From: Escherichia coli
Lineage (GTDB): Bacteria > Pseudomonadota > Gammaproteobacteria > Enterobacterales > Enterobacteriaceae
Strand: one strand, 5' to 3'
Length of the DNA stretch: 64,000 bases
Assembly (NCBI RefSeq): GCF_003018235.1
Contig: NZ_CP027437.1
In this document: positions 7,458-63,795 of the stretch, piece after piece
Layout of the letters: every line of letters begins with the position of its first letter
Position numbering within the stretch: position 1 is the stretch's first letter
The notes under the pieces: generated by a model
The model's input: only the letters and a program-made list of their open reading frames with translations
Databases searched by the model: none
What the model was told of the DNA's origin: nothing
Position numbers and translations under genes: made by a program

Positions 7458-7534
7458 GCGCCGTTAGCTCAGCTGGACAGAGCAATTGCCTTCTAAGCAA
7501 TCGGTCACTGGTTCGAATCCAGTATGGCGCACCA
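7458..7534 (+). tRNA. tRNA-Arg (anticodon TCT, reads AGA)
   Basis: Cloverleaf folded by hand: 7-bp acceptor stem, perfect 5-bp anticodon stem ATTGC/GCAAT, loop CTTCTAA, T-loop TTCGAAT, encoded CCA. Confidence 0.85.
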
Positions 7535-7535
7535 T

Positions 7536-7610
7536 GCGGTCATCGTATAATGGCTATTACCTCGGCCTTCCAGGCTGATGATGCGGGTTCGATTCCAGCT
7601 GGCCGCTCCA
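7536..7610 (+). tRNA. tRNA-Gly (anticodon TCC), glyT-like with one T-stem mismatch
   Basis: 75 nt, near-identical to E. coli glyT recalled from memory; anticodon loop CTTCCAG; acceptor stem with one G-U; T-stem GCGGG/CCAGC has a G-A mismatch. Confidence 0.7.
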
Positions 7611-7979: not shown

Positions 7980-8321
7980 GATGTTTGGTTGCGTATTGTA
8001 TAGGCAAGTTGCGGATTCTGTCTGGTCATTGCAGAATTCACCGGGAGGCACCCGGCACCATGCAGATAATTGTTTTGTGGATGATAATACCAGCCCCTCT
8101 CCGGAGGGGCTTTCTTATGGGCGAAAAAAAGCCCGGGGAGCCGGGCAATAGCATGAGATATACGTTTTTATAGACGTACAGATTTTAATCAGAATTTATG
8201 GGGCTGCGCAACTGCGTGGCCTTTTTTGTTTTGTGGGCTAAGGTTTTCCCCTTTGATTCGCCATGTGGCTGAACCTGTAGCCCGCCACTGTTCAGACGCA
8301 ATCCCGGCAAGGGGAGGAATA

Positions 8322-10349
8322 ATGGCATTTAAACACTACGATCTGGTCTCTGCCAGCAGCGGTGATGAACTGCAAAAGAAACTGACAGAAAAAATAAATG
8401 AAGGGTGGCAGCCATACGGTTCGCCGCTTGTTTCGTATGACGATAACGGGATGAAAATTATTCAGGCCATTGCAGCAGAGGGTGATGTCAGGATCCCGGT
8501 TGAAACGCCTGATGATGGTGGTGATTCACCGGTCACAATGACCTCCGGTGCACCTGATTATTATTATGTTGTTGTGCTTGCCGGACAGTCCAACGGCATG
8601 GCCTACGGTGAGGGGCTTCCGTTACCGGACTCTTATGACCGCCCGGACCCGCGCATTAAACAGCTGGCACGCCGCAGTACAGTGACGCCGGGTGGGGACG
8701 CCTGTGCATACAATGATGTGATTCCGGCTGACCATTGTCTGCATGATGTACAGGATATGAGCGGTGTTAATCATCCGAAAGCGGACCTGAATAAGGGGCA
8801 GTATGGCTGTGTCAGTCAGGGGCTGCATATTGCCAAAAAACTGCTGTCGTATATCCCGCAGAATGCAGGGATACTTCTGGTGCCCTGCTGCCGTGGTGGT
8901 TCTGCATTCACCACCGGGGCTGACGGCACATTCAGTGAGGTCACCGGCGCATCCGCTGACGCTGCACGCTGGGGTGCCGGTAAACCCCTGTATCAGGACA
9001 TGGTCAGCCGGACAAAAGCGGCGCTGGCCAAGAACCCGAAAAACAGGCTGCTGGCGGTGGTATGGATGCAGGGCGAGGCAGACCTTGCGTCAGGCAGTCA
9101 GCAGCATAACGGGTTATTCACGGCCATGGTTCAGCAGTTCCGGACTGACCTGTCCTCACTTGCTGCGCAGTGCGTGAGTGGCAATGCTGCCACGGTGCCG
9201 TGGATTTGTGGTGATACCACGTATTACTGGAAGGCCACTTATGGCACACAGTATGAAGCCATTTATGGAGCCTATAAGAATCTGTCCGCACAGAATATTT
9301 TCTTTGTACCGTTCCTGACAGATGAAAACGGCGCAAACACGCCAACGAACCAGCCAGCGGAAGACCCGGATATTGTGGCTGTGGGGTATTACGGTGCGGC
9401 ATCACGAACACAGGCGAACTGGACGACAGCGCAACGTGACAGCCATTTCAGCACCTGGGCGCGTCGCGGCATCATTTCTGACCGCCTTGCGTCAGCTATT
9501 CTGGTGCACGCGGGACGTACGTCAGGTTTCATTACCGGTGAAGTTTCTTCTCCGGACACTGCATCCGGTGACGGTGGTTCGTCCACTGATGCGGGTACGG
9601 ATGCGGGGACCGGCACTTCCGGAACAGGAAGTGATGACGCTACCGGAACGACACCAGCCACCGCTGCCATTATTCTGAGTGCAGACGGAGGGGATGTTTC
9701 GGCACAGGGCTGGACGGTGGAAGGCACCACGGTGACCACCACGGCAAACACGGTGACTTCATCGGGTGAGGCGCTGGCGCAGAATGTGCTGAGTGTTCCG
9801 AAACAGAGCGGGGCAGCATGGAAGCTTGTTCATACCACCACAGATGAGCCAGCGGAACTGCTGAACAATGGCGGTGAGTTCCTGTGTCGTTTCCGTATCA
9901 CGGATACTGCCATTGCTGAGGGGCGTTATGCCTTTGGTCTTTACTGGCTTCCGGACGCACAGAAGATACCAGCCGGTGCGACATTCAATAAAACAGGAAG
10001 CGGGATGTCCCCGTCCATGCTCAACTTCTATGTCCAGACGGATGGCAGCAACATAAACCTGTTATCACACTGCAGTACGAAGAGTGCAGGGAATCTGAAG
10101 ATTGGCTCATTCGGTGCATTTAACAATGAATGGCATACCTTCCGTCTTCGCTACCATGGTGGCAATACGGCAAGAGCAACGGTGACGCTGGACAGTCAGG
10201 TGGTGGGAGATATAACGCTGTTATGTGCGCCGTCAGCGGCCAGTGCCGGTGACACTCTGTCGATGATAAGTATCACATCGGGTGATACATACAGTATTGA
10301 AGTGGAAAGCCTGAGTGTGACGGTGAACGGGGCTGCGGCAGCGGCGTGA
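8322..10349 (+). CDS. prophage sialate O-acetylesterase-like protein (NanS-p-like) with long C-terminal Thr/Gly-rich domain
   Basis: GGGGAGGAATA RBS then ATG; SASA-type catalytic motif VLAGQSNGMAYGEG; N-terminal region resembling DUF1737; position equivalent to the esterase gene downstream of stx in Stx phages. Confidence 0.6.
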   Translation: MAFKHYDLVSASSGDELQKKLTEKINEGWQPYGSPLVSYDDNGMKIIQAIAAEGDVRIPVETPDDGGDSPVTMTSGAPDYYYVVVLAGQSNGMAYGEGLPLPDSYDRPDPRIKQLARRSTVTPGGDACAYNDVIPADHCLHDVQDMSGVNHPKADLNKGQYGCVSQGLHIAKKLLSYIPQNAGILLVPCCRGGSAFTTGADGTFSEVTGASADAARWGAGKPLYQDMVSRTKAALAKNPKNRLLAVVWMQGEADLASGSQQHNGLFTAMVQQFRTDLSSLAAQCVSGNAATVPWICGDTTYYWKATYGTQYEAIYGAYKNLSAQNIFFVPFLTDENGANTPTNQPAEDPDIVAVGYYGAASRTQANWTTAQRDSHFSTWARRGIISDRLASAILVHAGRTSGFITGEVSSPDTASGDGGSSTDAGTDAGTGTSGTGSDDATGTTPATAAIILSADGGDVSAQGWTVEGTTVTTTANTVTSSGEALAQNVLSVPKQSGAAWKLVHTTTDEPAELLNNGGEFLCRFRITDTAIAEGRYAFGLYWLPDAQKIPAGATFNKTGSGMSPSMLNFYVQTDGSNINLLSHCSTKSAGNLKIGSFGAFNNEWHTFRLRYHGGNTARATVTLDSQVVGDITLLCAPSAASAGDTLSMISITSGDTYSIEVESLSVTVNGAAAAA

Positions 10350-10481
10350 GGATAAAAAAAGCTGCCGTGGAAAGTGTCCTGAACCGGCAGCAAGGTCAAA
10401 TGATGGATATACCAATAAGGTTTAATAGGCGCAGATATTTCTAACCGGAAGGCACTTAACGGTCAATAATGGAGGTTGGTA

Positions 10482-10667
10482 ATGACATTTATACAACTGA
10501 TACTGCTATATTTCTGCACGGTGGTCTGTGCGTTATATCTGGTGAGCGGTGGCTATAAAGCCATCAGAAATTATGTCCGCCGAAAAATTGATGATGCAGC
10601 GGCTGAGAAGCTCAGCAGAACAACACAGGCTGCCTCATCCCCGAACGAACCAACCCTTCCACAGTAA
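10482..10667 (+). CDS. small single-pass membrane protein (61 aa)
   Basis: GGAGG RBS 6 nt upstream of ATG; N-terminal hydrophobic helix. Confidence 0.45.
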   Translation: MTFIQLILLYFCTVVCALYLVSGGYKAIRNYVRRKIDDAAAEKLSRTTQAASSPNEPTLPQ

Positions 10668-10689
10668 CGTCTCTCAGCGGGAAAATACC

Positions 10690-11025
10690 ATGACAGAACT
10701 GAACAAACTGGTCACTGCAGATGCAGTGAAGGCCGCACTGCGCTCTGAAGAAGTGCGGGGAAAACTGAAGGAAACCATCCGCAAAACGTTTGAGGCACAG
10801 ATTGATGCGGATGTGGAAGCGGTGCTGGATGAGCTTATCGGGCCTGCGGAAGCTCAGCCGGGAGCACCGGCCGGAGAGGATGCGCAGGCGGATGACACGT
10901 CAGCGGAAAACGGTGCGGCACAACCGGAACCTGAATCAGGAACCGAAGCTCAACCGGACGCTGCTTCCGGAACAGGAACGCAACCGGAGGGTACCCCGGA
11001 GCCGGAACCGGCGACGTTGCTGTAA
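10690..11025 (+). CDS. acidic low-complexity protein (112 aa)
   Basis: ATG in frame of ORF 10549..11025; C-terminal E/P/A/G/T-rich tail. Confidence 0.4.
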
Positions 11026-11102
11026 CACCTCATACTCAGGCCACCAGCATACAGCGGTGGCCTTTTGTTATCGTGCGCTTCCGGAGAACGGGAGACGGGG
11101 AT

Positions 11103-11318
11103 ATGTACCAGATGGAAAAAATCACAACAGGGGTGTCATACACCACGTCAGCGGCGGGAACGGGATACTGGTTACTGCAGCTGCTGGACAGGGTCTCCCC
11201 GTCCCAGTGGGCGGCGATAGGCGTGCTGGGGAGTCTGCTGTTTGGTCTGCTGACGTACCTGACGAACCTGTATTTTAAAATCAGAGAGGACCGTCGTAAG
11301 GCGGCGCGGGGAGAATAA
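11103..11318 (+). CDS. holin, phage-21 S-type (pinholin-like) with dual-start motif MYQM
   Basis: Near-identity to S21 C-terminal region ([14 protein letters not shown]...[22 protein letters not shown], from memory); two TM segments. Confidence 0.8.
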
Positions 11319-11321
11319 ATA

Positions 11322-11953
11322 ATGAACCATGAAGAAATGAATCAGCGCTTCAGTCGCCTGGAAAATGAAATTGCCGGACTGAATAAAAAACTGTCGGCGC
11401 TGGTGACTTCTGAAGATGAAAAAAAAAACGCCGCGATGAACAGGAGGCGGCGTTTTATGATTATTGCATCAAAGTTGCCCGCAGGACCTTTGCGAATTTT
11501 TTGCAGGAAAAGCTATCACCGACCACATCGTCAGAAAAGTACTCCATTACGGTTGAAAGTGCCGGAGAGGAAGGCAATAAACGTTATTTTATTGCGTCTG
11601 CACCGGATAAAGACGAGGAACCCCGTCGGCCTTTCAGGGTTTCCTATGAAGAGGGGGAGTTCGTCGTTTATGAGAACGGAAAACCTGTCCGGGCATCGCA
11701 TCATCACTGCCTGAAAATTATTGATCTCGCTATTGGATGCCTGAAAGACGAAAACACCAGGGTTATGAAACGCATTGGCCGTTGCATGGGGTATCTGCAG
11801 GTGGCGGCAGAGATTGAAGCACTTGACAGTGGTGCTGACAGGGATACAGCGGTGCGGGAGTTCCTTCTTCGTGATTTCAATACCACGCCCTTTAAAAAAG
11901 TGCCTTATGACTGGATCCAGCCGGGCCTGACTTATCTCAAAGGGCGTATATGA
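11322..11953 (+). CDS. hypothetical gene between holin and endolysin, split into two frames at an A10 tract (11419-11428); fused product about 210 aa if -1 shift
   Basis: Frame 0 ORF 11322.. is protein-like for about 33 codons then junk-like; frame -1 is protein-like from the A-run to 11953 but has no ATG start; A10 tract followed by 7-bp-stem hairpin ACGCCGC...GCGGCGT. Confidence 0.35.
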
Positions 11954-11995
11954 GTTGGCATGTTATCTGTGGCCGATAAATCCTGATAAATATCC

Positions 11996-12529
11996 ATGAA
12001 CGCAAAAATCAGATACGGCCTGTCGGCTGCCGTTCTGGCGCTGATTGCCGCAGGGGCTTCTGCGCCAGAAATCCTTGACCAGTTTCTGAATGAAAAAGAA
12101 GGTAATCACACCACGGCATACCGTGATGGTGCGGGTATCTGGACCATCTGCCGTGGTGCCATTCTGGTGGACGGTAAGCCTGTTGTTCCCGGCATGAAGT
12201 TGTCGAGGGAAAAATGCGACCAGGTTAACGCCATCGAACGTGACAGGGCGCTGGCATGGGTGGAGAAAAACATCAAAGTGCCGCTGACCGAACCGCAGAA
12301 AGCGGGGATTGCGTCATTCTGCCCGTACAACATCGGTCCTTCGAAATGCTTCACCTCAACGTTTTACCGGAGACTGAACGCCGGAGACCGTAAGGGGGCA
12401 TGTGCTGAAATCCGTCGGTGGATATATGACGGTGGCAGGGACTGCCGTATCCGCTCAAACAACTGCTACGGTCAGGTATCCCGGCGTGACCAGGAGAGTG
12501 CGCTGGCGTGCTGGGGTATCGACAGATAA
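11996..12529 (+). CDS. SAR endolysin (lysozyme, phage-21 R-type)
   Basis: N-terminal signal-anchor-release helix LSAAVLALIAAGASA followed by lysozyme catalytic region EGNHTTAYRDGAGIWTICRG. Confidence 0.8.
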   Translation: MNAKIRYGLSAAVLALIAAGASAPEILDQFLNEKEGNHTTAYRDGAGIWTICRGAILVDGKPVVPGMKLSREKCDQVNAIERDRALAWVEKNIKVPLTEPQKAGIASFCPYNIGPSKCFTSTFYRRLNAGDRKGACAEIRRWIYDGGRDCRIRSNNCYGQVSRRDQESALACWGIDR

Positions 12530-12619
12530 GCAGAATATTTTGCTGAAAAATGAGATTTTCCCACGCGTCCGGAAAACACAAAATCCTTCATAAAGGTATT
12601 TCAGTAGTGAATAAAAGTA

Positions 12620-12660
12620 AAAACCCCGATTGCGCTAACAGTCGGGGTTTTGTGTTTCTG
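12620..12660. terminator. bidirectional intrinsic terminator-like hairpin (AAAACCCCGA...TCGGGGTTTT)
   Basis: GC stem flanked by A-run and T-run. Confidence 0.5.
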
Positions 12661-12749
12661 ACCTTGAATAAGGCAAGGGAGAAATTATCAGGTAGGGAGG
12701 TGCTTTCCCTGTGAGGAAGTATAAAAGATTCTTTCTGAGGTTGTCCATT

Positions 12750-12863
12750 ATGAAAGGCATTGAAGTGGAGACGCCAGCCAGTCTGGATTTAACAAGAGCA
12801 GCAGCCTTTGCCATTCGTATTGTGGCAATTGCCATACTGGTCTGGGCAATCCGCTGGTGGTGA
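12750..12863 (+). CDS. small hydrophobic ORF (37 aa) overlapping the Rz start
   Basis: ATG ORF ending TGGTGATATG where Rz starts; one TM-like helix; weak RBS. Confidence 0.2.
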
Positions 12864-12864
12864 T

Positions 12865-13332
12865 ATGAACCGTGTTCTGTATGTGTTGATTATTGTCCTG
12901 CTGGTGGCCTGCGGTGCGCTGTGGCTGGCAACAGACCATTACCGCGATAATGCCATCACTTACAAAGCGCAGCGCGATAAAAAAGTCAGAGAACTGAAGC
13001 TGGCTGACGCCACCATTACTGACATGCAGCAGCGCCAGCGTGATGTTGCTGCACTCGATGCAAAATACACAAAGGAGTTAGCCGATGCGAGAGCTGAAAA
13101 TGAAACTCTGCGCGCTGATGTTGCTGCTGGTCGTAAGCGCCTGCGTGTCAACGCCACCTGTGTGTCCGCCACAGACAAAGCCACCGGCACCGCCCGCGTG
13201 GGTAATGCTGCCCGCCCCAGACTGGCAGACGCCGCTCAACGGTATTATTTCACCCTCAGAGAGCGGCTGATGACGATGCAGAAGCAACTGGAAGGGGCAC
13301 AGGAATATATCAGGACGCAATGCGTGAAATAG
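12865..13332 (+). CDS. i-spanin Rz
   Basis: N-terminal TM helix then coiled-coil periplasmic domain; embedded Rz1 frame. Confidence 0.7.
13100..13270 (+). CDS. o-spanin Rz1 (lipoprotein embedded in Rz in +1 frame)
   Basis: Lipobox LLVVSAC and Pro-rich mature region, fully inside Rz. Confidence 0.65.
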
Positions 13333-43924: not shown

Positions 43925-44000
43925 GTCCCCTTCGTCTAGAGGCCCAGGACACCGCCCTTTCACGGCGGTAACAGGGGTTCGAATCCCCTAGGGGACGCCA
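43925..44000 (+). tRNA. gltW: tRNA-Glu (anticodon TTC) in 16S-23S spacer
   Basis: Exact E. coli tRNA-Glu sequence GTCCCCTTCGTCTAGAGGCCCAGGACACCGCCCTTTCACGGCGGTAACAGGGGTTCGAATCCCCTAGGGGACGCCA. Confidence 0.98.
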
Positions 44001-44203
44001 CTTGCTGGTTTGTGAGTGAAAGTCACCTGCCTTAATATCTCAAAACTCATCTTCGGGTGACGTTTGAGATATTTGCTCTTTAAAAATCTGGATCAAGCTG
44101 AAAATTGAAACACTGAACAACGAAAGTTGTTCGTGAGTCTCTCAAATTTTCGCAACACGATGATGAATCGAAAGAAACATCTTCGGGTTGTGAGGTTAAG
44201 CGA

Positions 44204-47097
<2,894 letters not shown>

Positions 47098-47189
47098 ACA
47101 ACGCCGAAGCTGTTTTGGCGGATGAGAGAAGATTTTCAGCCTGATACAGATTAAATCAGAACGCAGAAGCGGTCTGATGAAACAGAATT

Positions 47190-47309
47190 TGCCTGGCGGC
47201 CTTAGCGCGGTGGTCCCACCTGACCCCATGCCGAACTCAGAAGTGAAACGCCGTAGCGCCGATGGTAGTGTGGGGTCTCCCCATGCGAGAGTAGGGAACT
47301 GCCAGGCAT
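47190..47309 (+). rRNA. rrfG: 5S ribosomal RNA
   Basis: 120 nt TGCCTGGCGGC...GCCAGGCAT. Confidence 0.97.
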
Positions 47310-47323
47310 CAAATTAAGCAGAA

Positions 47324-47350
47324 GGCCATCCTGACGGATGGCTTTTTTGC
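47324..47350 (+). terminator. rRNA operon terminator
   Basis: GGCCATC-CTGACG-GATGGCC hairpin plus TTTTT. Confidence 0.75.
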
Positions 47351-47631
47351 ATTGGCGCAGAAAAAATGCCGGATGCGACGCTGGCGCGTCTTATACTCCC
47401 ACATAAGCTAGATTCAGCAGCGAATACGGCTTCCCAAACTTGCCCACCTCCATACGTGTCCTCCTTACCAGAAATTTATCCTTAAGCTCCTCAATAACCA
47501 TTTTCCTGCTAACTAAATTCATGGTTAAGGTTGCATAATGATGCGCAACAAATGTATAACATTTTCTTTACCAAAAAAATAAACAACAGCGACCGACAAA
47601 AGCATCGGATTACGGCAGGAGATATAATGGC

Positions 47632-48930
47632 ATGGCTGAAAGTACTGTAACGGCAGACAGCAAACTGACAAGTAGTGATACTCGTCGCCGCATTTGGGCA
47701 ATTGTGGGGGCCTCTTCAGGTAATCTGGTCGAGTGGTTCGATTTCTATGTCTACTCGTTCTGTTCACTCTACTTCGCCCACATCTTCTTCCCTTCCGGGA
47801 ACACGACGACTCAACTACTGCAAACAGCAGGTGTTTTTGCTGCGGGATTTCTGATGCGCCCGATAGGCGGTTGGCTATTTGGCCGCATAGCCGATAAACA
47901 TGGTCGCAAAAAATCGATGCTGTTATCGGTGTGTATGATGTGTTTCGGCTCACTGGTTATCGCCTGTTTGCCAGGCTACGAAACAATCGGTACCTGGGCT
48001 CCGGCATTATTGCTTCTTGCTCGTTTATTCCAGGGATTATCCGTTGGCGGAGAATATGGCACCAGCGCCACCTATATGAGTGAAGTTGCCGTTGAAGGGC
48101 GCAAAGGTTTTTACGCATCATTTCAGTATGTGACGTTGATCGGCGGGCAATTGCTAGCTCTACTGGTTGTCGTGGTTTTACAACACACCATGGAAGACGC
48201 TGCACTCAGAGAGTGGGGATGGCGTATTCCTTTCGCGTTAGGAGCTGTGTTAGCTGTTGTGGCGTTGTGGTTACGTCGTCAGTTAGATGAAACTTCACAA
48301 CAAGAAACACGCGCTTTAAAAGAAGCTGGATCTCTGAAAGGATTATGGCGCAATCGCCGTGCATTCATCATGGTTCTCGGTTTTACCGCTGCGGGCTCCC
48401 TTTGTTTCTATACCTTCACCACTTATATGCAGAAGTATCTGGTAAATACTGCGGGAATGCATGCCAACGTGGCGAGTGGCATTATGACTGCCGCATTGTT
48501 TGTATTCATGCTTATTCAACCACTTATTGGCGCGCTGTCGGATAAGATTGGTCGTCGTACCTCAATGTTATGTTTCGGTTCGCTGGCAACCATTTTTACC
48601 GTTCCTATTCTCTCAGCATTGCAGAACGTTTCTTCGCCTTATGCCGCTTTTGGTCTGGTGATGTGCGCCCTGCTGATAGTGAGTTTTTATACTTCAATCA
48701 GTGGAATACTGAAGGCTGAGATGTTCCCGGCACAGGTTCGCGCATTAGGCGTTGGTCTGTCATATGCGGTCGCCAATGCTATATTTGGTGGCTCAGCAGA
48801 GTATGTAGCGTTGTCGCTGAAATCAATAGGAATGGAAACAGCCTTCTTCTGGTATGTGACCTTGATGGCCGTGGTGGCGTTTCTGGTTTCTTTGATGCTA
48901 CATCGCAAAGGGAAGGGGATGCGCCTTTAA
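47632..48930 (+). CDS. kgtP: alpha-ketoglutarate permease (MFS)
   Basis: 432 aa matching E. coli KgtP ([39 protein letters not shown]...). Confidence 0.95.
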
Positions 48931-49271
48931 TTATGCGCCAACTGCCAGACGGTATAGCCAGTAGTTGCACCGGCGACATCCCAGGTAAAATCTTTCCAGC
49001 TCCAGCCGCTCCCCTCGGGGCGGCTATCCCAAAGTTCTTTTGACGCGCCCAGCCCAACAGAGAACATCAGCCCGAAAGTGGCACTGCGATCTCGACTCAT
49101 CCCCTGATGCTGTGCATATTCATTTCCGGCGGCGGAAAGCATCGCCGAGGCGATAAAGTGTTGAGCTTTATCCTGCCCGCTCCAGCTATCGTTAGCCATA
49201 TGGCTGCATCCAGAAAGTAACAATAGCGAACAGACAAAAAGAATACGCAAAACGTGGCCTCCAAAAAACAA
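48927..49271 (-). CDS. yfiM: lipoprotein YfiM
   Basis: Lipobox LLLSGCS; synteny; start codon uncertain (TTG in ORF track). Confidence 0.8.
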
Positions 49272-49295
49272 ACCCCGTACAGGACGGGGTTGTGA

Positions 49296-50651
49296 TTACA
49301 GGATGCGGCTAATTAATCGGTCGATGCGGATACGGCGCAAACGACGGATGAGTTTACGAACCTTCACCGGATAATCGGCAATACTTTGCAGATCGCGATA
49401 GTGCTTAACGATGGTGGTATGCTCGCGGATCAGCTCCAGTTCTTTCTCTCGCTGTGGCGCAAGCTCCAGTTGCGGATCGTGGATCAAAATGGCGTTTTCC
49501 AGATCCAGACGCCAGGCGCGCGGGTTCAGGTTATTACCAGTGATCAACATCCACTTATCATCAACCCACATCCCTTTCAGGTGATAGGTGTTGTCGTCAT
49601 CTTTCCATAACCGAACCACTAACTGGTCAGTGTTGACGTAATACTGTAAACGGCTCAGGAAACGACGCAGATTGATCTCATAGAGATAAGGCAATGCGCC
49701 AATTATCTTGAAAGGTTCATCTTCCGGAATGTAGAAGTCATTCGCGGTTTTATCACCAACAATAATTTCGACCTTTTTCCCTTCGCGCAGCAACTGGATG
49801 ATATTGCGCACAAGGATTGCTGGCAGGTTGAAGTATGGCGTACAGATGGTTAGTTTCTGCTCGGCACAAGGCATAAGGTGGAAAATGGTCTTGTTTAACA
49901 GACTCGATTTCCCCAGTCCCACTAGCGGCGTTACGGAAAGCTGATCGTTGTCGGCATCGCCCTGGAAATGATAAGCGGCATCACGCAGCTCCTGGCGGAA
50001 CAGACGAATATCGTTCTTGATTTCCGGGCTTTTTGGCCGATTAACATCATCCAGACGATTAACGCCGCGGCCATTCATAATATTCTGTGTAACCCATTCA
50101 AACATAATGTCTGACATCTTACGGTTACGGATCAGATGATAACGGTCGTAGCGATATTTATCGTGCTGATGCAGGTAAACATCGTTCAGGCTGGCACCGC
50201 TATAAAGTACGCTATCGTCGATGATAAAGCCTTTAAAGTGCAGAACACCAAGGGCTTCACGGGTATTGATTGGAACGCCATAAACCGGAACATCTACGCC
50301 CGGATTTTCCTGCGCCATGCGGCAGTACCAGTCAGCGTTAGTGTTAGATGCCGCAGCGCCAATGCGTCCACGTTGTGCACGATGCCAGTCGACCAGCACC
50401 CGCACATCCAGTTCCGGACGCTGCCTTTTAGCCTCATACAACGCGTTCAGAATGCCTTTGCCACCGTCATCCTGTTCGAGATACAGGGCGACAATGCAAA
50501 TGCGCTGCTTCGCGCTGGCTATTTTTTCCAGCAGCGTCTCCCGGAAGTCGGCGGGAGCGTAAAAGAAATCGACATCATCAACTGATTGAGAAATCTTGGG
50601 TAGTTGGGCAAGGTGTTGTTGATGTTTATTACGCTTAAATTTTGACAACAT
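49296..50651 (-). CDS. pssA: CDP-diacylglycerol-serine O-phosphatidyltransferase
   Basis: 451 aa matching E. coli PssA (MLSKFKRNKHQQHLAQLPKISQSVDDVDFFYAPADF...). Confidence 0.95.
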   Translation of the reverse strand: MLSKFKRNKHQQHLAQLPKISQSVDDVDFFYAPADFRETLLEKIASAKQRICIVALYLEQDDGGKGILNALYEAKRQRPELDVRVLVDWHRAQRGRIGAAASNTNADWYCRMAQENPGVDVPVYGVPINTREALGVLHFKGFIIDDSVLYSGASLNDVYLHQHDKYRYDRYHLIRNRKMSDIMFEWVTQNIMNGRGVNRLDDVNRPKSPEIKNDIRLFRQELRDAAYHFQGDADNDQLSVTPLVGLGKSSLLNKTIFHLMPCAEQKLTICTPYFNLPAILVRNIIQLLREGKKVEIIVGDKTANDFYIPEDEPFKIIGALPYLYEINLRRFLSRLQYYVNTDQLVVRLWKDDDNTYHLKGMWVDDKWMLITGNNLNPRAWRLDLENAILIHDPQLELAPQREKELELIREHTTIVKHYRDLQSIADYPVKVRKLIRRLRRIRIDRLISRIL

Positions 50652-50764
50652 CACAGTGCATTTCTTCTCTGTTCATTGAAGGGTCCTCTGTGCAATGCAG
50701 ACGACATAAGCGGGCAATAATAACACCAGTCCCGATTAAGTGGTCAACATTTCCAGTACCTTAC

Positions 50765-53425
50765 TCATGATTCCTCGCGCTGGGCAAGATTTAGCGTAAG
50801 CCCAACGATCCCCTCTTCGAGCTGGATATCAACGTTAAACCCGAGCTTGCGGGCCAGCGCCACCATGCCACGATTGTTTGGCATCGTAATACCATTCAGA
50901 CGTTGTAGTCCGTGATCTCGCGTATAGGTAATCAACTTTTCCATTAAGCGTCGACCTAAGCCTAACCCTTTGAGATCCGAGCGAACCAGCACGGCAAATT
51001 CGGCATCGATGTTATCAGGGTCGGAGATCGCACGCGTGACGCCGAGGATCTCTTCCGTTTGTTCAATACGTCGTACTGCTACAAACGCCATTTCCCGATC
51101 GTAGTCGATCTGCGTCATGTTGGCTAAATCTTCATGGGTAAATTCGTTGATCTCGCTAAAGTAGCGGTAATAAAGATCTTCTTTGGTGACTCGCGAAATG
51201 AATTGCTGAAGTTGTGGCTCATCTTCTGGCAAAATCGGGCGGAACAAGCAGCGTTCACCGTTTTTCAATTCTACCCATTCTTCCAGCTGATGCGGATAAG
51301 GGCGCACTGCCAGCCGACTCTCGTTATCGCCTTCAAACGGCGCGATATCCAGCGTGACATCCAGCGCGGTAAATTCACTGCCAGAAGCCAGCAAAGGATG
51401 AATATCCAGACGCTGAATTTCCGGGCAATCGACAATCAAGTTAGAAACCTGCACCAGAAGCTGGCTCAAGCCTGCAACATCTAATGGGCGTAGCGCACTG
51501 CGCGCACGAATCTTTTTACTTTTGATCCCCTGAATAACCAGATAGCGGGCCAGGTTCATGTTCAGCGGCGGTAGTGCGACGACGGCTTGATCTTCAGGAC
51601 GCCACTCCACACCGCCTTCGCCCAGCATGATCAACGGCCCGAAAACCGGATCGTGCTCAACCACAACCCGCAACTCCTGAGCGCCAGCACGGTTAGCCAT
51701 ACTTTGCACCAACAGGCCGTGGATCCGCGCCTGCGGCCAGGCCATTTTTACGCGATCGAAAATAGCGTTTGCCGCTTGCTGGACTTCATTAGCTGTACGC
51801 AGGTAGAGCATTACGCCCTGAACTTCCGATTTATGTGGAATATCCGGCGAACGCAATTTCAGCGCCACCGGATAACCAATCTGTTCGGCAATATGCACCG
51901 CTTCGGTGCTATCGCTGGCAATCCAGGTGGGGAGCGTGTTCATGCCATACGCTTGCAGGATGGGCTGAACTTCATGGGTATCGAGCGACGTAGCCCCTTC
52001 GGCAATCGCCTGTTGCAACAGAAGATGTGCTTCTGCGGTATTGGAGGTCAGATTGCTGGGCAACGCCGGCGTTTCGCGTAGTTGCTTCTGATTACGTCGG
52101 TACTCCACCATATGCATAAAAGCAGTGATGGTTCCTTCCGGCGTGCGATAGGTCGGCAGCCCGGCTTCACTGAATAATCGTCGTGCCTCTTGAGAGGAGT
52201 GCTCGCCGCACCAGTTCGTCAGCAGAGAAACATACTTGCTGCGGGGATGATGCTTTACCGCTTCAATTAATACTTGCGCGCTTTCTGTTGCGGGAGCAGC
52301 GGCGCTGGGCGAATGAATAACCATCAGCGCATCAAAATCCTGGCTGTGGAGCAGAATGTCCAGCGTTTTGACATAATGCTCGCTGCTGGCGTCATCGCGT
52401 AGATCGAGCGGGTTAGAGACTGCCACATGTTCTGGCAGTGCATCGCGCAGTTTCTGGCAGGTTTCTTCGCTTAGTGTTGCCAGCTTGCCATTGCGTGACC
52501 ATAAGGCATCCAGCGCCAGCGCGGCAGGCGCAGCACCGTTGCTGATAATCATCAACCGGTCGCCACGCAGCGGGCGCATATGGCTAAGGGTTTCTACCGC
52601 CGAAAACAGTTCGTGGGTGTCCTGTACCCGCAACAAACCGGCACGCTGAATAGCCGCATCCCACGCCGGATCCATTCCTGCCGTGGTGTTCAACAGACGT
52701 TGAGCCGCCGGGCTACGTCCGCTTTTAATCACCAGAATCGGTTTATTGCGAGAGGCACTACGGGCCGCCGAAACAAAGCGTCGCGCGTCGCTTAACTGTT
52801 CGAGATAGAGCAGGATGGCGCTGGTTTTACTGTCGCGCGCCAGATAGTCGAGCAATTCATCAACGTCGATATCCAGGCTGTCGCCGAGCGCAATAAAGTA
52901 GGAAAAGCCCATCTCACGCTGTTGCGCCCAGTCGAGGATGGTATTGGAGACGGCAGCCGATTGCGAAATAAACGCCAGCTTGCCGCGTTTAATCGGCACA
53001 GGTGAAAAGCTGGCATTTAGACCTTGCCAGGGAGCCAGTAAACCCAGACTGTTTGGTCCTAGCAGGCGCATGTTATGGCGCAGGGCGCAGGCGCGGAGAT
53101 CTTCGTGTTGCGATGCCGGGGCGGAAAGAATAATGCAGGTTTTACAGCCTTTCTCGCCGAGCTCTTCCAGAAGAGCAAGATTACGGCTGGCATTGGTACA
53201 TAAAACCGCAAGGTCGGGTGTAAAGGGCAAGCTGGCAATATCCGGCCAGGCCAACACACCCAACACCGCTTTCCAGGCAGGCGTCACCGGGAGTACCGGT
53301 CCGTTAAAGCCTCCCGCCAGCAGGTTACGCATCATCAGGTAACCTGCGCGATTGGGTTTCATCGATGCGCCAATTACCGCAATCGATTTTGGTCGCAGTA
53401 GTGCTTCCAGTCCTCGCTGACTCAT
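50765..53425 (-). CDS. patZ: protein lysine acetyltransferase PatZ/Pka
   Basis: 886 aa; N-terminal CoA-binding/acyl-CoA synthetase-like region and C-terminal GNAT domain. Confidence 0.95.
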   Translation of the reverse strand: MSQRGLEALLRPKSIAVIGASMKPNRAGYLMMRNLLAGGFNGPVLPVTPAWKAVLGVLAWPDIASLPFTPDLAVLCTNASRNLALLEELGEKGCKTCIILSAPASQHEDLRACALRHNMRLLGPNSLGLLAPWQGLNASFSPVPIKRGKLAFISQSAAVSNTILDWAQQREMGFSYFIALGDSLDIDVDELLDYLARDSKTSAILLYLEQLSDARRFVSAARSASRNKPILVIKSGRSPAAQRLLNTTAGMDPAWDAAIQRAGLLRVQDTHELFSAVETLSHMRPLRGDRLMIISNGAAPAALALDALWSRNGKLATLSEETCQKLRDALPEHVAVSNPLDLRDDASSEHYVKTLDILLHSQDFDALMVIHSPSAAAPATESAQVLIEAVKHHPRSKYVSLLTNWCGEHSSQEARRLFSEAGLPTYRTPEGTITAFMHMVEYRRNQKQLRETPALPSNLTSNTAEAHLLLQQAIAEGATSLDTHEVQPILQAYGMNTLPTWIASDSTEAVHIAEQIGYPVALKLRSPDIPHKSEVQGVMLYLRTANEVQQAANAIFDRVKMAWPQARIHGLLVQSMANRAGAQELRVVVEHDPVFGPLIMLGEGGVEWRPEDQAVVALPPLNMNLARYLVIQGIKSKKIRARSALRPLDVAGLSQLLVQVSNLIVDCPEIQRLDIHPLLASGSEFTALDVTLDIAPFEGDNESRLAVRPYPHQLEEWVELKNGERCLFRPILPEDEPQLQQFISRVTKEDLYYRYFSEINEFTHEDLANMTQIDYDREMAFVAVRRIEQTEEILGVTRAISDPDNIDAEFAVLVRSDLKGLGLGRRLMEKLITYTRDHGLQRLNGITMPNNRGMVALARKLGFNVDIQLEEGIVGLTLNLAQREES

Positions 53426-53456
53426 ACCGGTCTCCCGCAGAAGTGACCGAATGATT

Positions 53457-54155
53457 TTAAACGCTTTCTAACTGTTCTGCTGTGATGCTACCCAGATGTT
53501 GCGTTTTTCCTGCCAGATAGCGTGTTTTAAAGCGGGTAAAATGCTCGCCTAACCCTGCCGCCGCCCCGGTATCGCCGGCCATATCTAACAGTGCGATGGC
53601 TACCTCGGCAGTACAATATTGGCCTTCAGCCTGGGCTTCACGCAGGCGATAGGCAGAAAGCCGGGAAAGATCGACGGAAATGACGGGAAGATTATCCAGA
53701 TACGGACTTTTACGAAACATCTTGCGAGCTTCAGGCCAGGTACCATCGAGCATGATAAATAGCGGAGGCTTACCGGCAGGTGGTGTGAAGATCACTTCCC
53801 GTTGCTCATCAGCATATGAGGCGGGAAAGACCACCATTGGCTGATAGTCCGGGTTTTGTACCAGATCCAGCAAATCTAGCGAGGGTTCGGTACGCGACCA
53901 TTGAAACGCAACGGTATCAGGCAAAATATCAGCAATCAGACGCCCGGTATTACTGGGCTTCATTGGCTCGGTGTCGAACATCAGCAAACAGAAGCGACTT
54001 TTTGCTTGTGCTGGGGTAATTGTCGAACAGAGACATAATTTCTCTGGCAAAAGACAGCGTTGGCAGCGACGAACGCGATTACCGCGGGCAAGAAAAGGAC
54101 GTGTTGCGCGCGCAATACGCTCGGCGCGTAACTGGAGAACAGCGTTTTCGGTCAT
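53457..54155 (-). CDS. yfiP: DTW-domain tRNA-uridine aminocarboxypropyltransferase YfiP
   Basis: 232 aa from MTENAVLQLRAE; Cys cluster and DTW-like motif FIMLDGTWPEA. Confidence 0.9.
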   Translation of the reverse strand: MTENAVLQLRAERIARATRPFLARGNRVRRCQRCLLPEKLCLCSTITPAQAKSRFCLLMFDTEPMKPSNTGRLIADILPDTVAFQWSRTEPSLDLLDLVQNPDYQPMVVFPASYADEQREVIFTPPAGKPPLFIMLDGTWPEARKMFRKSPYLDNLPVISVDLSRLSAYRLREAQAEGQYCTAEVAIALLDMAGDTGAAAGLGEHFTRFKTRYLAGKTQHLGSITAEQLESV

Positions 54156-54223
54156 AAGAGAGCGTCGAAAAAACGCCATTGTCGCAGAGGAGAAAACGGG
54201 GCACAAGATGCGCCCCGGTAAGA

Positions 54224-54643
54224 TTAAAGAGATTCGTTCAGCCAGCTATCAAACGGCGCTTTCGGTACTGCGCCATTAAGCATGTCGACAACCTGACCGT
54301 TTTTGAAAATCATGATCGTCGGTATACTACGAATTCCAAAGCGACTGCTCAATTCACGTTCAGCTTCGGTATTCACTTTCACAAAGCGCACTTTACCGCT
54401 ACGCTCTTGCGCGACATCTTCAAAAATTGGTGCGAAATTACGGCAGGGGCCGCACCACGGTGCCCAGAAGTCGATCACCACAGGTAGATCATCTTTCAGC
54501 AATTTGTCGAGCGTTTCACCGGTCGCATTAATCACCTCTCCGTCAAACAAGTCGTGACCGCAGCGTCCGCATTTTGCCGCATCTTCGATCCGATCGTCGG
54601 GAATGCGATTGATGGCCTGACAATGGGTACAAACGGTATTCAT
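54224..54643 (-). CDS. trxC: thioredoxin 2
   Basis: 139 aa; N-terminal zinc-binding CxxC pairs and WCGPC active site. Confidence 0.97.
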
Positions 54644-54849
54644 AACTAACCTCGGGATGAGTAAGGAGACTTATCGGCAACGACGCCGGTATGTTTCTAA
54701 TATGTTACATATTATCGGGGACATTGTTCCAGACAACAATCTGTTTTATTCAATAGGTATGATAGTCGCAGGCTTTGGTACGAAATCATGGCGAACCGCG
54801 CGGACTTCGGGTAATCTGCGCGCTTCGCGCAGCGCTGGTGGAGAAAAGC

Positions 54850-55887
54850 ATGAACGATGAAATGAAAGGTAAAAGCGGCAAGGTCAAAGTGATGTATGTC
54901 CGCAGTGATGATGATTCTGATAAACGTACCCACAACCCGCGTACCGGGAAAGGGGGCGGGCGTCCAGGAAAATCTCGTGCTGACGGTGGCCGTCGCCCCG
55001 CCCGCGATGACAAACAGAGTCACCCCCGTGACCGCAAGTGGGAAGATTCGCCGTGGCGCACGGTTTCCCGCGCGCCGGGTGATGAGACGCCGGAAAAGGC
55101 CGATCACGGTGGCATCAGTGGTAAAAGTTTTATTGATCCGGAAGTTTTGCGTCGTCAACGTGCGGAAGAAACCCGCGTCTACGGCGAAAACGCCTGTCAG
55201 GCACTGTTCCAGAGCCGTCCGGAAGCGATTGTTCGCGCCTGGTTTATCCAGAGTGTAACGCCGCGTTTTAAAGAAGCCTTGCGCTGGATGGCAGCAAACC
55301 GCAAAGCGTACCATGTGGTAGATGAAGCGGAACTGACAAAAGCGTCAGGCACGGAACATCACGGCGGCGTTTGCTTCCTGATCAAAAAGCGTAATGGTAC
55401 AACCGTGCAGCAGTGGGTAAGCCAGGCAGGCGCGCAGGATTGTGTACTGGCGCTGGAAAACGAATCTAACCCGCATAACCTGGGCGGCATGATGCGTAGC
55501 TGTGCGCACTTCGGCGTGAAAGGTGTTGTGGTGCAGGATGCAGCACTGCTGGAGTCTGGGGCGGCTATCCGTACCGCAGAAGGCGGCGCAGAGCACGTTC
55601 AGCCGATTACTGGCGACAACATTGTTAACGTGCTGGATGATTTCCGTCAGGCGGGTTACACCGTAGTGACAACTTCCAGCGAGCAGGGGAAACCGCTGTT
55701 CAAAACCAGCCTGCCAGCGAAAATGGTACTGGTGCTGGGTCAGGAATATGAAGGGTTACCGGATGCCGCACGCGATCCGAACGATCTGCGCGTGAAGATT
55801 GACGGTACGGGCAACGTTGCCGGGCTGAATATCTCTGTTGCAACCGGCGTTTTGCTTGGTGAATGGTGGCGTCAGAATAAAGCCTGA
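54850..55887 (+). CDS. yfiF: SpoU-family RNA methyltransferase YfiF
   Basis: 345 aa from [12 protein letters not shown]; basic N-terminus, SpoU/TrmH-like C-terminus. Confidence 0.9.
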
Positions 55888-55934
55888 TAAATCAGCCGGG
55901 TGGCAACTCTGCCATCCGGCATTTTCCCGCAAAT

Positions 55935-56624
55935 TTACTCACTCTCTGCCGGTAATACTGGCATCCAGTCAATCGGCGTCTCGCCATGTTGTTCCAGCCA
56001 CTGATTTGCCAGCACAAAATGGTTACAGCCAAAGAATCCACGATGCGCAGAAAGCGGTGACGGATGCGGTGCTTTCAGTACGTGATGGCGTTGCTTATCT
56101 ATAATCGCCCCTTTCTTTTGCGCATGCGATCCCCACAACAAAAACACCACGCCTTCGCGATGCTGGTTAATCAGGCTGATGACTTTATCAGTAAACGTCT
56201 CCCAACCGAGGCTGGCATGGGAATGCGCCTGACCTGCGCGAACCGTCAACACAGTATTGAGTAGCAGAACGCCCTGACGCGCCCAGCTTTCAAGATAACC
56301 ATGATTAGGGCGGGTGAAACCGGGAATAGTATTTTCCAGCTCTTTATACATATTCAGCAGTGACGGCGGTGTCGCAATGCCGGGGCGAACGGAAAATGCC
56401 AGACCATGCGCCTGTCCCGGTCCGTGATAAGGATCCTGGCCGAGAATCACCACTTTAACGTCACCCAACTCGGTAAAGCGGAACGCGTTAAAGACATCTT
56501 TTTGTGGTGGATAGATAGTGACGCCGGACTGCCGCTCGCTGGCGACGGTCTGTAGGGTATTAAGAAAATAGGGTTGTTGCTTCTCTTCAGCCAGCACGTC
56601 ATGCCAGGTTAATTCGTTTGCCAT
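55935..56624 (-). CDS. ung: uracil-DNA glycosylase
   Basis: 229 aa; motifs GQDPYH and HPSPLS. Confidence 0.97.
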
Positions 56625-56927
56625 CTCGCTCTCCCGCGAATCTTCAATCCGCCTAGCTTAACTGCTTCTTTCTACAGAACAAAATCATGCTCATTTTTTA
56701 GACTTAAACGAGTGCAAAAAATGTAAATTGGTAAAATTTCACACCTGCATAAGTTGATGTAAAACAATAAAATCCATTTGCGACCATGCTTGATGTGTGG
56801 TTTTTATTGATTTAAATCAAAGATTCAAGGGTGTTTGAGGAGTATATATACACTCAAGCAACAATGGTTTTACCAATTGGCCGCGACAGGCTGAACAAAT
56901 CAAATAATTTTGCCGGGGAGGCATCAC

Positions 56928-57311
56928 ATGATTACAGGTATCCAGATTACTAAAGCCGCTAACGACGATCTGCTGAACTCTTTCTGGCTGCTGGACAGCG
57001 AAAAAGGCGAAGCGCGTTGCATCGTTGCGAAAGCAGGTTTTGCAGAAGACGAAGTGGTTGCAGTAAGCAAACTGGGTGACATTGAGTACCGTGAAGTTCC
57101 AGTAGAAGTGAAACCAGAAGTTCGCGTTGAAGGTGGTCAACACCTGAACGTAAACGTTCTGCGTCGTGAAACTCTGGAAGATGCAGTTAAGCATCCGGAA
57201 AAATATCCGCAGCTGACCATCCGTGTATCCGGTTATGCAGTTCGCTTTAACTCTCTGACTCCGGAACAGCAGCGCGACGTTATCGCTCGTACCTTTACTG
57301 AAAGCCTGTAA
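56928..57311 (+). CDS. grcA: autonomous glycyl radical cofactor GrcA
   Basis: 127 aa; C-terminal glycyl-radical motif RVSGYAV. Confidence 0.97.
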
Positions 57312-57365
57312 GGCTTAAGTAGCAAGTTACTAAGCGGAAGAGGGCGACCTCTTCCGCTTTTTTCA

Positions 57366-57953
57366 TTAATAGAAAATGCGTACCGCGCAATAGACCAGCA
57401 GCAGCGCGAGCACGATATTTAACTGGCGACCATACTGGCGAAACAATCGCTGAAACAGGTGCCCCGCCAGCGCCCAGCACACATTGCCAAACGTCCCAAT
57501 CATCGCCAGCAAAACGCTGACGCCAATTACCCAGCTTAGCGCCTGCGTTTGCGGCAGGACAAACGTCGACAGTGCTGTAATGCCATACAAAATGATTTTG
57601 ACGTTCACAAACTGCAAAGCAAAGCTGGCCCAAAAACTGATTGGTTTTGTCTGAAGCCCATCTTCCTTTGTTGGACTGGTAGCGATTTTCCACGCCAGCC
57701 AGACAATATATGCCGCCCCCGCCCAACTCAACAGATGCACTGCTACCGGGTCGATAACAGCCAGTGAAAACGAAATGCCCGCGCATAGCAACATGACGAT
57801 TAAAAATCCCAGACTCATCCCTGCCAGCACGCGAGTACTCTGACGAAATCCGTGCGTTGTGGCTGAGCTAAGGGCGAGAATATTGTTCGGTCCTGGCGTC
57901 ATGGCGGTAATCAGGGTGTAAGTCCAAAAAGCACTTAAAAGGGTCGGTGTCAC
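57366..57953 (-). CDS. eamB: cysteine/O-acetylserine exporter EamB (LysE family)
   Basis: 195 aa, multi-TM; synteny. Confidence 0.93.
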   Translation of the reverse strand: MTPTLLSAFWTYTLITAMTPGPNNILALSSATTHGFRQSTRVLAGMSLGFLIVMLLCAGISFSLAVIDPVAVHLLSWAGAAYIVWLAWKIATSPTKEDGLQTKPISFWASFALQFVNVKIILYGITALSTFVLPQTQALSWVIGVSVLLAMIGTFGNVCWALAGHLFQRLFRQYGRQLNIVLALLLVYCAVRIFY

Positions 57954-58055
57954 TTGTTATCTCCTCTGTTTTGGTAGACAGTACCCGACACGGAATATTT
58001 AAAAAAATGAATGTTTTTACATTCTAAATTCGATATTTTCGATAGGTTTGGGGTT

Positions 58056-58937
58056 ATGGATCTGCGCCGTTTTATTACGCTTAAAACCGTGGTGGAAGAG
58101 GGTTCCTTTTTGCGAGCTTCGCAAAAATTGTGCTGCACACAATCGACGGTGACTTTTCATATTCAGCAGCTTGAGCAGGAGTTCTCAGTACAGTTATTTG
58201 AGAAAATTGGTCGACGAATGTGCCTTACCCGCGAAGGAAAAAAGCTGCTGCCGCACATTTATGAACTTACCCGAGTGATGGATACCCTTCGTGAGGCTGC
58301 CAAAAAAGAGTCGGATCCGGACGGGGAACTACGCGTTGTTTCAGGCGAAACGTTGCTTTCTTACCGAATGCCGCAGGTGTTGCAGCGTTTTCGGCAACGC
58401 GCACCAAAAGTGCGTTTATCGTTGCAGTCTCTGAACTGTTACGTGATCCGTGATGCGCTACTGAATGATGAGGCTGATGTCGGCGTCTTTTACCGCGTAG
58501 GGAATGATGATGCTCTAAACCGACGAGAATTGGGTGAGCAATCGCTGGTGCTGGTAGCTTCACCGCAAATTGCAGATGTCGATTTTACTGAGCCGGGAAG
58601 ACATAACGCCTGTAGCTTTATTATCAACGAACCGCAATGTGTATTCCGGCAGATATTTGAGAGCACGCTGCGCCAGCGGCGGATCACGGTGGAAAACACC
58701 ATTGAGCTGTTAAGCATTGAAAGTATCAAACGTTGTGTCGCGGCGAATATCGGGGTCAGCTACCTGCCGCGCTTTGCGGTAGCAAAAGAATTGGCGAGCG
58801 GCGAGTTAATCGAATTGCCTTTTGGCGAACAGTCGCAGACGATTACAGCAATGTGCGCACACCATGCTGGAAAAGCGGTTAGCCCGGCGATGCACACTTT
58901 TATTCAGTGTGTTGAAGAGTGTTTTTTGCCGGGATAA
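58056..58937 (+). CDS. yfiE: LysR-family transcriptional regulator YfiE
   Basis: 293 aa from MDLRRFITLKTVVEEGSFLRAS (LysR HTH). Confidence 0.92.
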   Translation: MDLRRFITLKTVVEEGSFLRASQKLCCTQSTVTFHIQQLEQEFSVQLFEKIGRRMCLTREGKKLLPHIYELTRVMDTLREAAKKESDPDGELRVVSGETLLSYRMPQVLQRFRQRAPKVRLSLQSLNCYVIRDALLNDEADVGVFYRVGNDDALNRRELGEQSLVLVASPQIADVDFTEPGRHNACSFIINEPQCVFRQIFESTLRQRRITVENTIELLSIESIKRCVAANIGVSYLPRFAVAKELASGELIELPFGEQSQTITAMCAHHAGKAVSPAMHTFIQCVEECFLPG

Positions 58938-58969
58938 AAATAATGCCGGGCTTAAACCCGGCATTGAGA

Positions 58970-60304: not shown

Positions 60305-60435
60305 GTTCTACCTCTGTGTGGGGCGCTGATTATAGACGTTACGGCTGCAATCTTCATCTGTTTGTATGGATATCGCTTCTCGGGTATTGTTCTCACCCGG
60401 TGCTATCGCCGTTTTTCCTGCAAGGTTTTATTTTC

Positions 60436-62789
<2,354 letters not shown>

Positions 62790-63077
62790 TTAATTTACTA
62801 AACACGGTTTGGTCAGCATAGCATCATGTTGTGCGATTAAACACCTGCTATTTTAATATTTGTTACAGTGGCTAAACACGCTGACGCAGGGCGGCGAGAA
62901 AAAGAGAAGTTACTGGCTGGTGGAGGATTAGGTGGTGAAATAAAAAGGCCGTTGGGTTACTCTTCAGGCAGTTAAATGGGCATTTCTACACAGATAATGC
63001 GATGTTCAGATTCTGTAGACTTATAATGATAGATAATGATCCGTCTACAGCATGACAAACAAAAACAGATGCGTTAC

Positions 63078-63105
63078 GGAACTTTACAAAAACGAGACAC
63101 TCTAA
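63078..63105 (+). promoter_or_regulatory. sigmaE-dependent rpoE promoter (GGAACTT, 16 nt, TCTAA)
   Basis: Exact match to sigmaE consensus hexamers and spacing. Confidence 0.8.
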
Positions 63106-63187
63106 CCCTTTGCTTGCTCAAATTGCAGCTAATGGAGTGGCGTTTCGATAGCGCGTGGAAATTTGGTTTGGGGAGACTTTACCTCGG

Positions 63188-63763: not shown

Positions 63764-63795
63764 CGATAGCGGGATACTGGATAAGGGTATTAGGC

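Follow-up and report, generated by a model that had tools for sequence, protein, structure and literature searches.

The interval between the holin and endolysin genes of a lambdoid prophage in the window, by which we mean the whole 64,000-nt stretch of Escherichia coli DNA that was analysed, holds one gene and not two. This gene, an accessory gene of about 209 codons assigned to PHROG 1085, has most probably been broken by a recent slipped-strand expansion of a run of adenines, and is not an instance of programmed recoding. The late operon of the prophage is the region that holds the holin, the disputed gene, the endolysin, Rz/Rz1 and the terminase genes, which follow Rz/Rz1. Its features up to Rz/Rz1 were located as follows.

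11103 to 11318, plus strand: class II (phage 21 S-type) pinholin of 71 aa with dual starts, Met1 and Met4 (phrog_9876, E 8e-40; phrog_20 holin, E 2.5e-33)
11322 to 11426, plus strand: 5′ part of the broken gene, read in the 0 frame (codons 1–35), coiled-coil N-terminus (100% match to repaired residues 1–35; aligns with intact relatives)
11322 to 11714, plus strand: literal 0-frame ORF of 130 aa, residues 36–130 out of frame
11419 to 11428, plus strand: A10 homopolymer, two longer than the ancestral in-frame A8, the frameshift site
11425 to 11456, plus strand: hairpin AAAACGCCGC / GCGGCGUUUU with a 12-nt loop, in coding sequence (KRRDEQEAAF); −16.3 kcal/mol, z −3.0
11429 to 11953, plus strand: 3′ part of the broken gene, read in the −1 frame, with residues 36–209 (99.4% tblastn match in frame 2; phrog_1085, E 2.5e-78)
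11996 to 12529, plus strand: SAR-type endolysin (R21-like lysozyme) of 177 aa (phrog_7 endolysin, E 1.3e-61; exact protein named lysozyme)
12868 to 13332, plus strand: Rz i-spanin (phrog_13 Rz-like spanin, E 1.2e-71)
13085 to 13270, plus strand: Rz1 lipoprotein ORF embedded in Rz, 61 aa, lipobox LVVSAC

The positions given in the preliminary description for the A10 tract (11419–11428), the holin stop (11318) and the endolysin start (11996) were confirmed directly in the sequence, and the interval of about 680 bp that it had reported measured 677 bp from the holin stop (TAA, 11316–11318) to the endolysin ATG. On 962 contigs the exact holin protein bears the name class II holin, and PF04971 is recorded on the identical holin gene in relatives. 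Upstream, the window carries in order a Q-like antiterminator, a DNA methyltransferase, tRNA-Arg and tRNA-Gly (7458–7610), an NanS-p-type SASA esterase that begins about 600 bp later (8226–10349; phrog_143), and small DUF1378-like and DUF826-like ORFs. The slot held here by the esterase after tRNA-Arg and tRNA-Gly is that of stxAB in Stx phages, and there is no room for stx at this place, so that the prophage is related to those of Stx type but is stx-negative. Ahead of the holin, the DUF826-like ORF (10690–11025; phrog_311) has an acidic, low-complexity C-terminal tail of about 55 aa that is rich in Pro, Glu, Ala and Gly and ends ...PEPEPATLL; the relatives of 81–101 aa are without this tail. 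The prophage adjoins tRNA-Glu (43925–44000) and an rrn operon. For the chromosomal flank (window 44001–64000: rRNA operon, kgtP, pssA, patZ ... rpoE) the nearest matches, at 99.1%, were porcine ETEC and E. coli of the O139:H1 edema-disease type. On the minus strand, in the interval that separates the endolysin from Rz, 12616–12691 gave a sub-threshold match to the P22 sar antisense RNA (RF00262), which scored 31 bits where the gathering score is 43, with E 0.0002 in a 401-nt search. This match is preceded on the same strand by a sigma-70-like promoter (10/12, 12747–12718) and ends in a 13-bp terminator-like hairpin (12620–12651) that could act in both directions, and it may represent a small antisense RNA gene or the remnant of an ant/immI-type module.

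The ATG of the disputed gene (11322) lies 4 nt past the holin stop and is preceded at 8–9 nt by a GGAG. From this ATG, about 33 protein-like codons followed by junk had been read in the 0 frame, in agreement with our comparison, in which 35 codons matched relatives and the remainder had no homologue. At the tract the 0 frame reads GAA GAT GAA AAA AAA AAC GCC (...SEDEKKNAAMN). The −1 frame, rightly described as carrying the rest of the gene to 11953, has a TGA at 11417–11419, after which it stays open from 11420 until the TGA at 11951–11953, reading KKKRRDEQEAAFYDYC...LTYLKGRI, with no other stop or frameshift inside the 3′ segment; the remark that it had no ATG needed amending, as internal starts such as TTG 11501 are present. 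When the repaired protein was searched by tblastn, residues 1–35 were found in the 0 frame and residues 33–209 in the −1 frame. Two separate genes were ruled out, since residues 36–130 of the 0-frame ORF are without homologues except for the tails of other frameshifted alleles (P0079), and the exact 130-aa product was not found in a collection of 15 billion proteins. Nor did the idea of two unrelated degraded halves survive the comparison, in which relatives encode both as a single ORF of 185, 209 or 213 aa. The 130-aa and 150-aa ORFs call for annotation as a single frameshifted gene; neither a pair of hypothetical proteins nor a recoding site is the right label. The A10 tract is the sole homopolymer of at least 9 bases in the window, where base composition predicts about 0.04 A-runs of 10 or more.

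A profile search with the fused translation, which the preliminary description had proposed, matched phrog_1085 (E 2.5e-78), with residues 78–209 aligned on profile positions 161–296 of 296. By sequence, the disputed gene is assigned to PHROG 1085, a common uncharacterised E. coli prophage family that is already catalogued. The existence of short PHROG families that cover only the N- or the C-terminus of the protein suggests that fragmented annotation of this gene is common. By megablast, 11300–12000 had matches in 368 of 5426 complete E. coli genomes, in every case beside a class II holin or lysozyme, and K-12 Qin has ydfR at this place, so that an insert between S and R is not the unusual feature for which it had been taken. 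The holin-gene-lysozyme order is also found in L001–L005, L087, L213 and K-12 Qin, and relatives carry at the same position an uninterrupted ORF of 213 aa (L002, L004 and L005), 185 aa (L003) or 209 aa (L001). Intact proteins of 185, 209 and 213 aa occur on hundreds of contigs; the intact 209-aa alleles are found on 314, 65 and 45 contigs, and each frameshifted allele on 1–6.

Scanning IMG/VR with the pattern CTGAAGATG-N(5-14)-CGCCGCGATGA returned 120 stretches, 115 of which were copies of this gene family. Their tracts were distributed as follows.

A8: 85 copies, in frame
CAAACAAA (interrupted): 11 copies, in frame
AAAACAAA (interrupted): 11 copies, in frame
CAAAAAAA (CA7): 4 copies, in frame
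A7: 4 copies, frameshifted

The junction was in frame in 111 of the 115 copies and a tract of 9 or more A was found in none of them. In 22 copies the tract is interrupted by C and unable to slip, yet the full protein is encoded. The insert and its tract length, a comparison suggested at the outset, thus proved common and mostly A8 (85/115). Frameshifted alleles were rare and scattered, with A7 in at least four backgrounds, A9 in two and A10 only in the window. A HMMER search over 1.84 billion representative proteins returned only 39 relatives, several of them N-terminal stubs that stop at the tract, of which ...EDEKKTPR* corresponds to A9 and ...EDEKNAAM... to A7. Because the A7 allele P0099 is present in three independent assemblies (one NCBI genome and two from SRA runs), real inherited frameshifts arise at this tract, which has undergone repeated mutation in nature.

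Several further observations concern the family. The closest complete-genome relative, L001 (NZ_CP076709.1, 1523–2129), is flagged 'frameshifted' by RefSeq/PGAP, yet it has A8 and translates as a single uninterrupted 209-aa ORF; we rejected the flag as misleading, its apparent source being an indel-rich comparison against the 213-aa subfamily. A clade of 12 relatives in IMG/VR (L007–L017 and L039) combines the in-frame interrupted tract AAAACAAA with a different C-terminus (...DFNTPPLRKSLMTGSSRG*). The change lies about 60 nt before the stop, at the equivalent of window positions ~11886–11900 (CCCTTTAAAAAAG), and has the look of a second frameshift, located in short T/A runs close to the 3′ end, in which case the family would break at more than one homopolymer. 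In cluster look-ups one and the same longest contig was given for four proteins, namely the 150-aa ORF of the window, its endolysin, the intact 209-aa paralogue P0003 (A8) and a different 150-aa fragment, P0099 (A7; EC2021H102_23090), which suggests that the source chromosome holds this gene in three lambdoid prophages and that two of these copies are frameshifted at the A tract.

Compared with its closest RefSeq relative (96.4% identity), the junction of the window differs only by two extra A's. The gene is intact, with A8, in L215 (SRA run SRR31147225), which shares 99.0% identity with the window over 1046 bp. The 1753-bp contig L216 (SRA run SRR16763804) aligns to window 10307–12060 with 0 mismatches and a single gap, and its tract is A9. 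The frame is kept by tracts of A8, A11 or A14; the earlier statement that A9 or A12 would give an uninterrupted ORF was arithmetically wrong, and the A9 allele gives a 38-aa stub followed by a 178-aa ORF. Tract length is thus polymorphic among very close relatives (A8 in L215, A9 in L216 and A10 in the window), where one of the longer counts may be a technical error; the A9 of L216 against the A10 of the window means that either one count is wrong or the tract varies. Because A9 and A10 both put this background out of frame, the disruption is with high probability real, and it is the exact count, 9 or 10, that is uncertain. It is improbable that the split is an assembly or sequencing artefact, a homopolymer miscall of a true A8 (or A11) in a cell where the gene is intact. 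Homopolymers are where errors classically occur, the A10 allele has been seen in a single assembly and on a single contig, the sole other sequence of the same background reads A9, and the IMG/VR A7 copy L147 has a second homopolymer deletion that suggests read errors in that record. However, an artefact would need both counts for the background to be wrong, and another lineage shows inherited frameshifts at the tract in its three independent assemblies. A further argument against it is the 20-kb chromosomal stretch of the window, which is free of homopolymer frameshifts in genes when compared with the 99.1%-identical genome; the two 1-nt differences in kgtP are faults of that genome, whose own copy is marked as frameshifted, and the kgtP ORF of the window is intact. 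Of the readings first offered for the tract, a homopolymer length change or pseudogene agrees with the closest relatives, which have A8 and one uninterrupted 209-aa ORF. The frameshift appears to be recent, because the rest of the gene is undecayed and the 99%-identical relative is intact.

The other reading offered at the outset, a programmed −1 frameshift or slippage site, was not borne out, with 111 of 115 IMG/VR copies in frame and the hairpin carried by in-frame relatives as well. The hairpin does overlap the end of the tract, as had been described, but its stem ends at 11453 (11456 with A-U pairs) and not at 11455. Its core is formed by CGCCGC (11429–11434) and GCGGCG (11447–11452), and A-U pairs lengthen it to 10 bp over 11425–11456. 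In the folding control, 2 of 200 shuffles folded as well, and an Rfam search over 10900–12900, which includes the hairpin, found no family at threshold. Because the search pattern fixed the 5′ arm, only the 3′ arm was informative in our survey of 113 copies, in which it read GCGGCG in 49, GCTGCG in 47 and GCAGCG in 17. A central mismatch of the 6-bp core with no compensating change was therefore present in 64 of the 113 copies (57%), its cause being a synonymous change of an Ala codon from GCG to GCT or GCA. Since intact relatives also carry the hairpin, it is most plausibly a side effect of the codons CGC CGC ... GCG GCG (RR...AA) and not a recoding signal. We consider it unlikely that the hairpin and its flanking A and U runs form an intrinsic terminator inside the gene, which would stop Q-less transcription before the endolysin and of which the A-run would be a part. 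In favour of a terminator, the GC-rich stem is followed by UUUUAUGAUU, the upstream A-run and downstream U-run give the shape of a bidirectional terminator, and the stem of relative L002 reaches 12 bp with an 8-nt loop (−23.7 kcal/mol, z −4.8). Yet the terminator scan did not flag the site, because its loop is 12 nt here, the U-run is just 4 long (UUUU) and is broken in the AAAACAAA clade, the stem core is mismatched in 57% of relatives, and the frameshift would be left unexplained. The hairpin may still terminate transcription weakly within the gene.

Under programmed recoding, the normal route to a 210-aa protein would be either a −1 shift of the ribosome on A_AAA_AAA or A_AAA_AAC, with the hairpin as stimulator, or transcriptional slippage of a programmed kind; this we regard as extremely improbable. 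Both heptamers are in the right frame (11420–11426 and 11423–11429; codons AAA AAA AAC), the nearby hairpin has a z of −3.0, the tract has at least 9 A, and the A7 and A10 alleles both put the downstream part in the −1 frame. Against this, the split is not conserved, for of the 111 in-frame copies 22 cannot slip, and the A9 allele in an identical background needs the opposite shift. Known frameshift stimulators sit about 5–9 nt downstream of the heptamer, whereas here the GC stem starts at 11429, 0–2 nt past the heptamer or overlapping it, and the A-U extension starts at 11425, inside the heptamer. With this spacing and with uncompensated stem mismatches and no covariation in more than half of the copies, the hairpin fails as a frameshift stimulator. 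Moreover, the 0-frame product has no defined short stop, and 95 junk codons follow. The run itself would suit transcriptional slippage, with A10 at the junction and a 1-nt change (A11) that restores the frame, and yet a long tract with split ORFs conserved across orthologues was not found, the tracts in IMG/VR being A8, A7 or interrupted. Unless the split is conserved, a hairpin beside a slippery run gives no evidence for programmed frameshifting, a question that about 115 relatives settle here.

A hypermutable on/off switch, in which the A-run is kept as a contingency tract and prophage populations toggle the accessory protein, is very unlikely too. It is favoured by the four lengths found in nature (A7, A8, A9 and A10), by the occurrence of A8, A9 and A10 within backgrounds that are at least 99% identical, by the position of the tract early in the gene (codons 33–35), and by the pure A8 that most alleles keep although AAG codons would give the same peptide. 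However, off alleles are rare, 4 of 115 in IMG/VR (about 3.5%) and 1–6 contigs each against hundreds for intact alleles; 26 of the 115 copies are intact with a CA7 (4) or a C-interrupted (22) tract, so that a long pure run is not needed; and A8 is short for a phase-variable tract. We give little more credence to a hypermutable dimmer, in which A7, A8, A9 and A10 would toggle by replication slippage and polymerase stutter on the longer alleles would keep a low level of full-length protein. If it were true, lysogens would vary the dose of a late-operon accessory protein with relatives fused to the RNase E-binding domain of YdfR.

All in all, an ordinary slippage mutation accounts best for the window. 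Slipped-strand mispairing during DNA replication would have turned an in-frame A8 (GAA AAA AAA, E-K-K) into A9 or A10, and ribosomes that start at ATG 11322 would enter out-of-frame sequence after codon 35. RNA polymerase stutter on A10 would then leave a minority of transcripts with A11, which would restore the frame and give 210 aa with one extra Lys, or with A8, which would give the 209-aa protein. By analogy with other A-runs, some full-length 210-aa protein is probably still made in this way, and the A10 allele would be leaky and not null, a leakiness that we take to be incidental and not a matter of design.

The product is predicted from its sequence to be a cytoplasmic accessory protein of about 209 aa, encoded in the late operon of the prophage. 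In its repaired form it had no significant match in searches against Pfam, NCBIfam, PADLOC and PDB sequences. A holin-like or secreted lysis factor was ruled out, as the maximal Kyte-Doolittle hydropathy over 19 residues is 0.79 and there is neither a transmembrane segment nor a signal peptide. The AlphaFold2 model (mean pLDDT 65.7) has two long N-terminal helices (3–63), a low-confidence linker (58–99) and a C-terminal domain (100–208; pLDDT 70–85) made of a small beta-sheet and four helices; fold searches with this model returned nothing specific. The C-terminal domain has the conserved signature GR.M..LQ.AAEIE ... PP.K..W..PG..YL and recurs in phage proteins of 190–314 aa with other N-termini. 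Because many cassettes are without the gene and broken alleles persist, the gene appears dispensable for the holin-endolysin-spanin mechanism. In our literature search, no gene was described between S and R of Stx or lambdoid phages, and Stx-phage genomics papers made no mention of one.

Three known systems resemble parts of this arrangement. In the dnaX-type −1 frameshift, A_AAA_AAG is followed by a 6-nt spacer and then a stem-loop. The window shares with it a slippery heptamer of lysine codons followed by a GC-rich hairpin, and differs from it in the 0–2 nt spacer, in a split that is not conserved, in a stem without covariation and in lacking a defined 0-frame termination product. Closer to the preferred reading, an ordinary slippage mutation, is the behaviour of A-runs in transcription. 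Runs of 9 A are prone to slippage in many bacteria, where ORFs that they disrupt can be restored in the mRNA (PMC1088944), and the A11 run of Citrobacter rodentium tssM1 yields about 20–25% of +1 transcripts (PMC4256274). As in the disrupted ORFs with 9A/9T of the former study and in tssM1, two frames of an enterobacterial coding sequence are parted here by a run of 9 or more A, and, as in tssM1, one A added in the mRNA joins both. E. coli RNA polymerase stutters on 9–11 A, from which we infer that a minority of transcripts would give the full-length protein. The two cases differ in that tssM1 needs both products and is a functional arrangement, whereas the split in the window is confined to one lineage of a family whose norm is in frame, so that any rescue would be incidental.

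The third comparison is with ydfR (DUF1327), which in K-12 Qin (essQ-ydfR-rrrQ) occupies exactly this place, with a class II holin of 71 aa on one side and a lysozyme of 177 aa on the other. Long DUF1327 proteins of PHROG 1085 link the two, P0047 consisting of DUF1327 (E 7.7e-35) followed by the same coiled coil and C-terminal domain. In contrast with YdfR and P0047, the window protein has no DUF1327 and no Pfam or NCBIfam match. Residues 1–72 of YdfR are reported to bind RNase E's catalytic domain, and YdfR to co-purify with RNA (2026 study, PMC13232886); this RNase E-binding part is missing from the window protein. Because some relatives are fused to the RNase E-binding domain, the protein may conceivably act on host RNA metabolism late in infection, a weak lead that we hold with low confidence since the window protein itself is without DUF1327. 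In phage 21-type cassettes, an uncharacterised modular gene set (ydfR/DUF1327, the coiled coil with the C-terminal module, and fusions of both) is regularly found between holin and endolysin, and it is this YdfR-slot family, not the broken copy in the window, that merits experimental attention.
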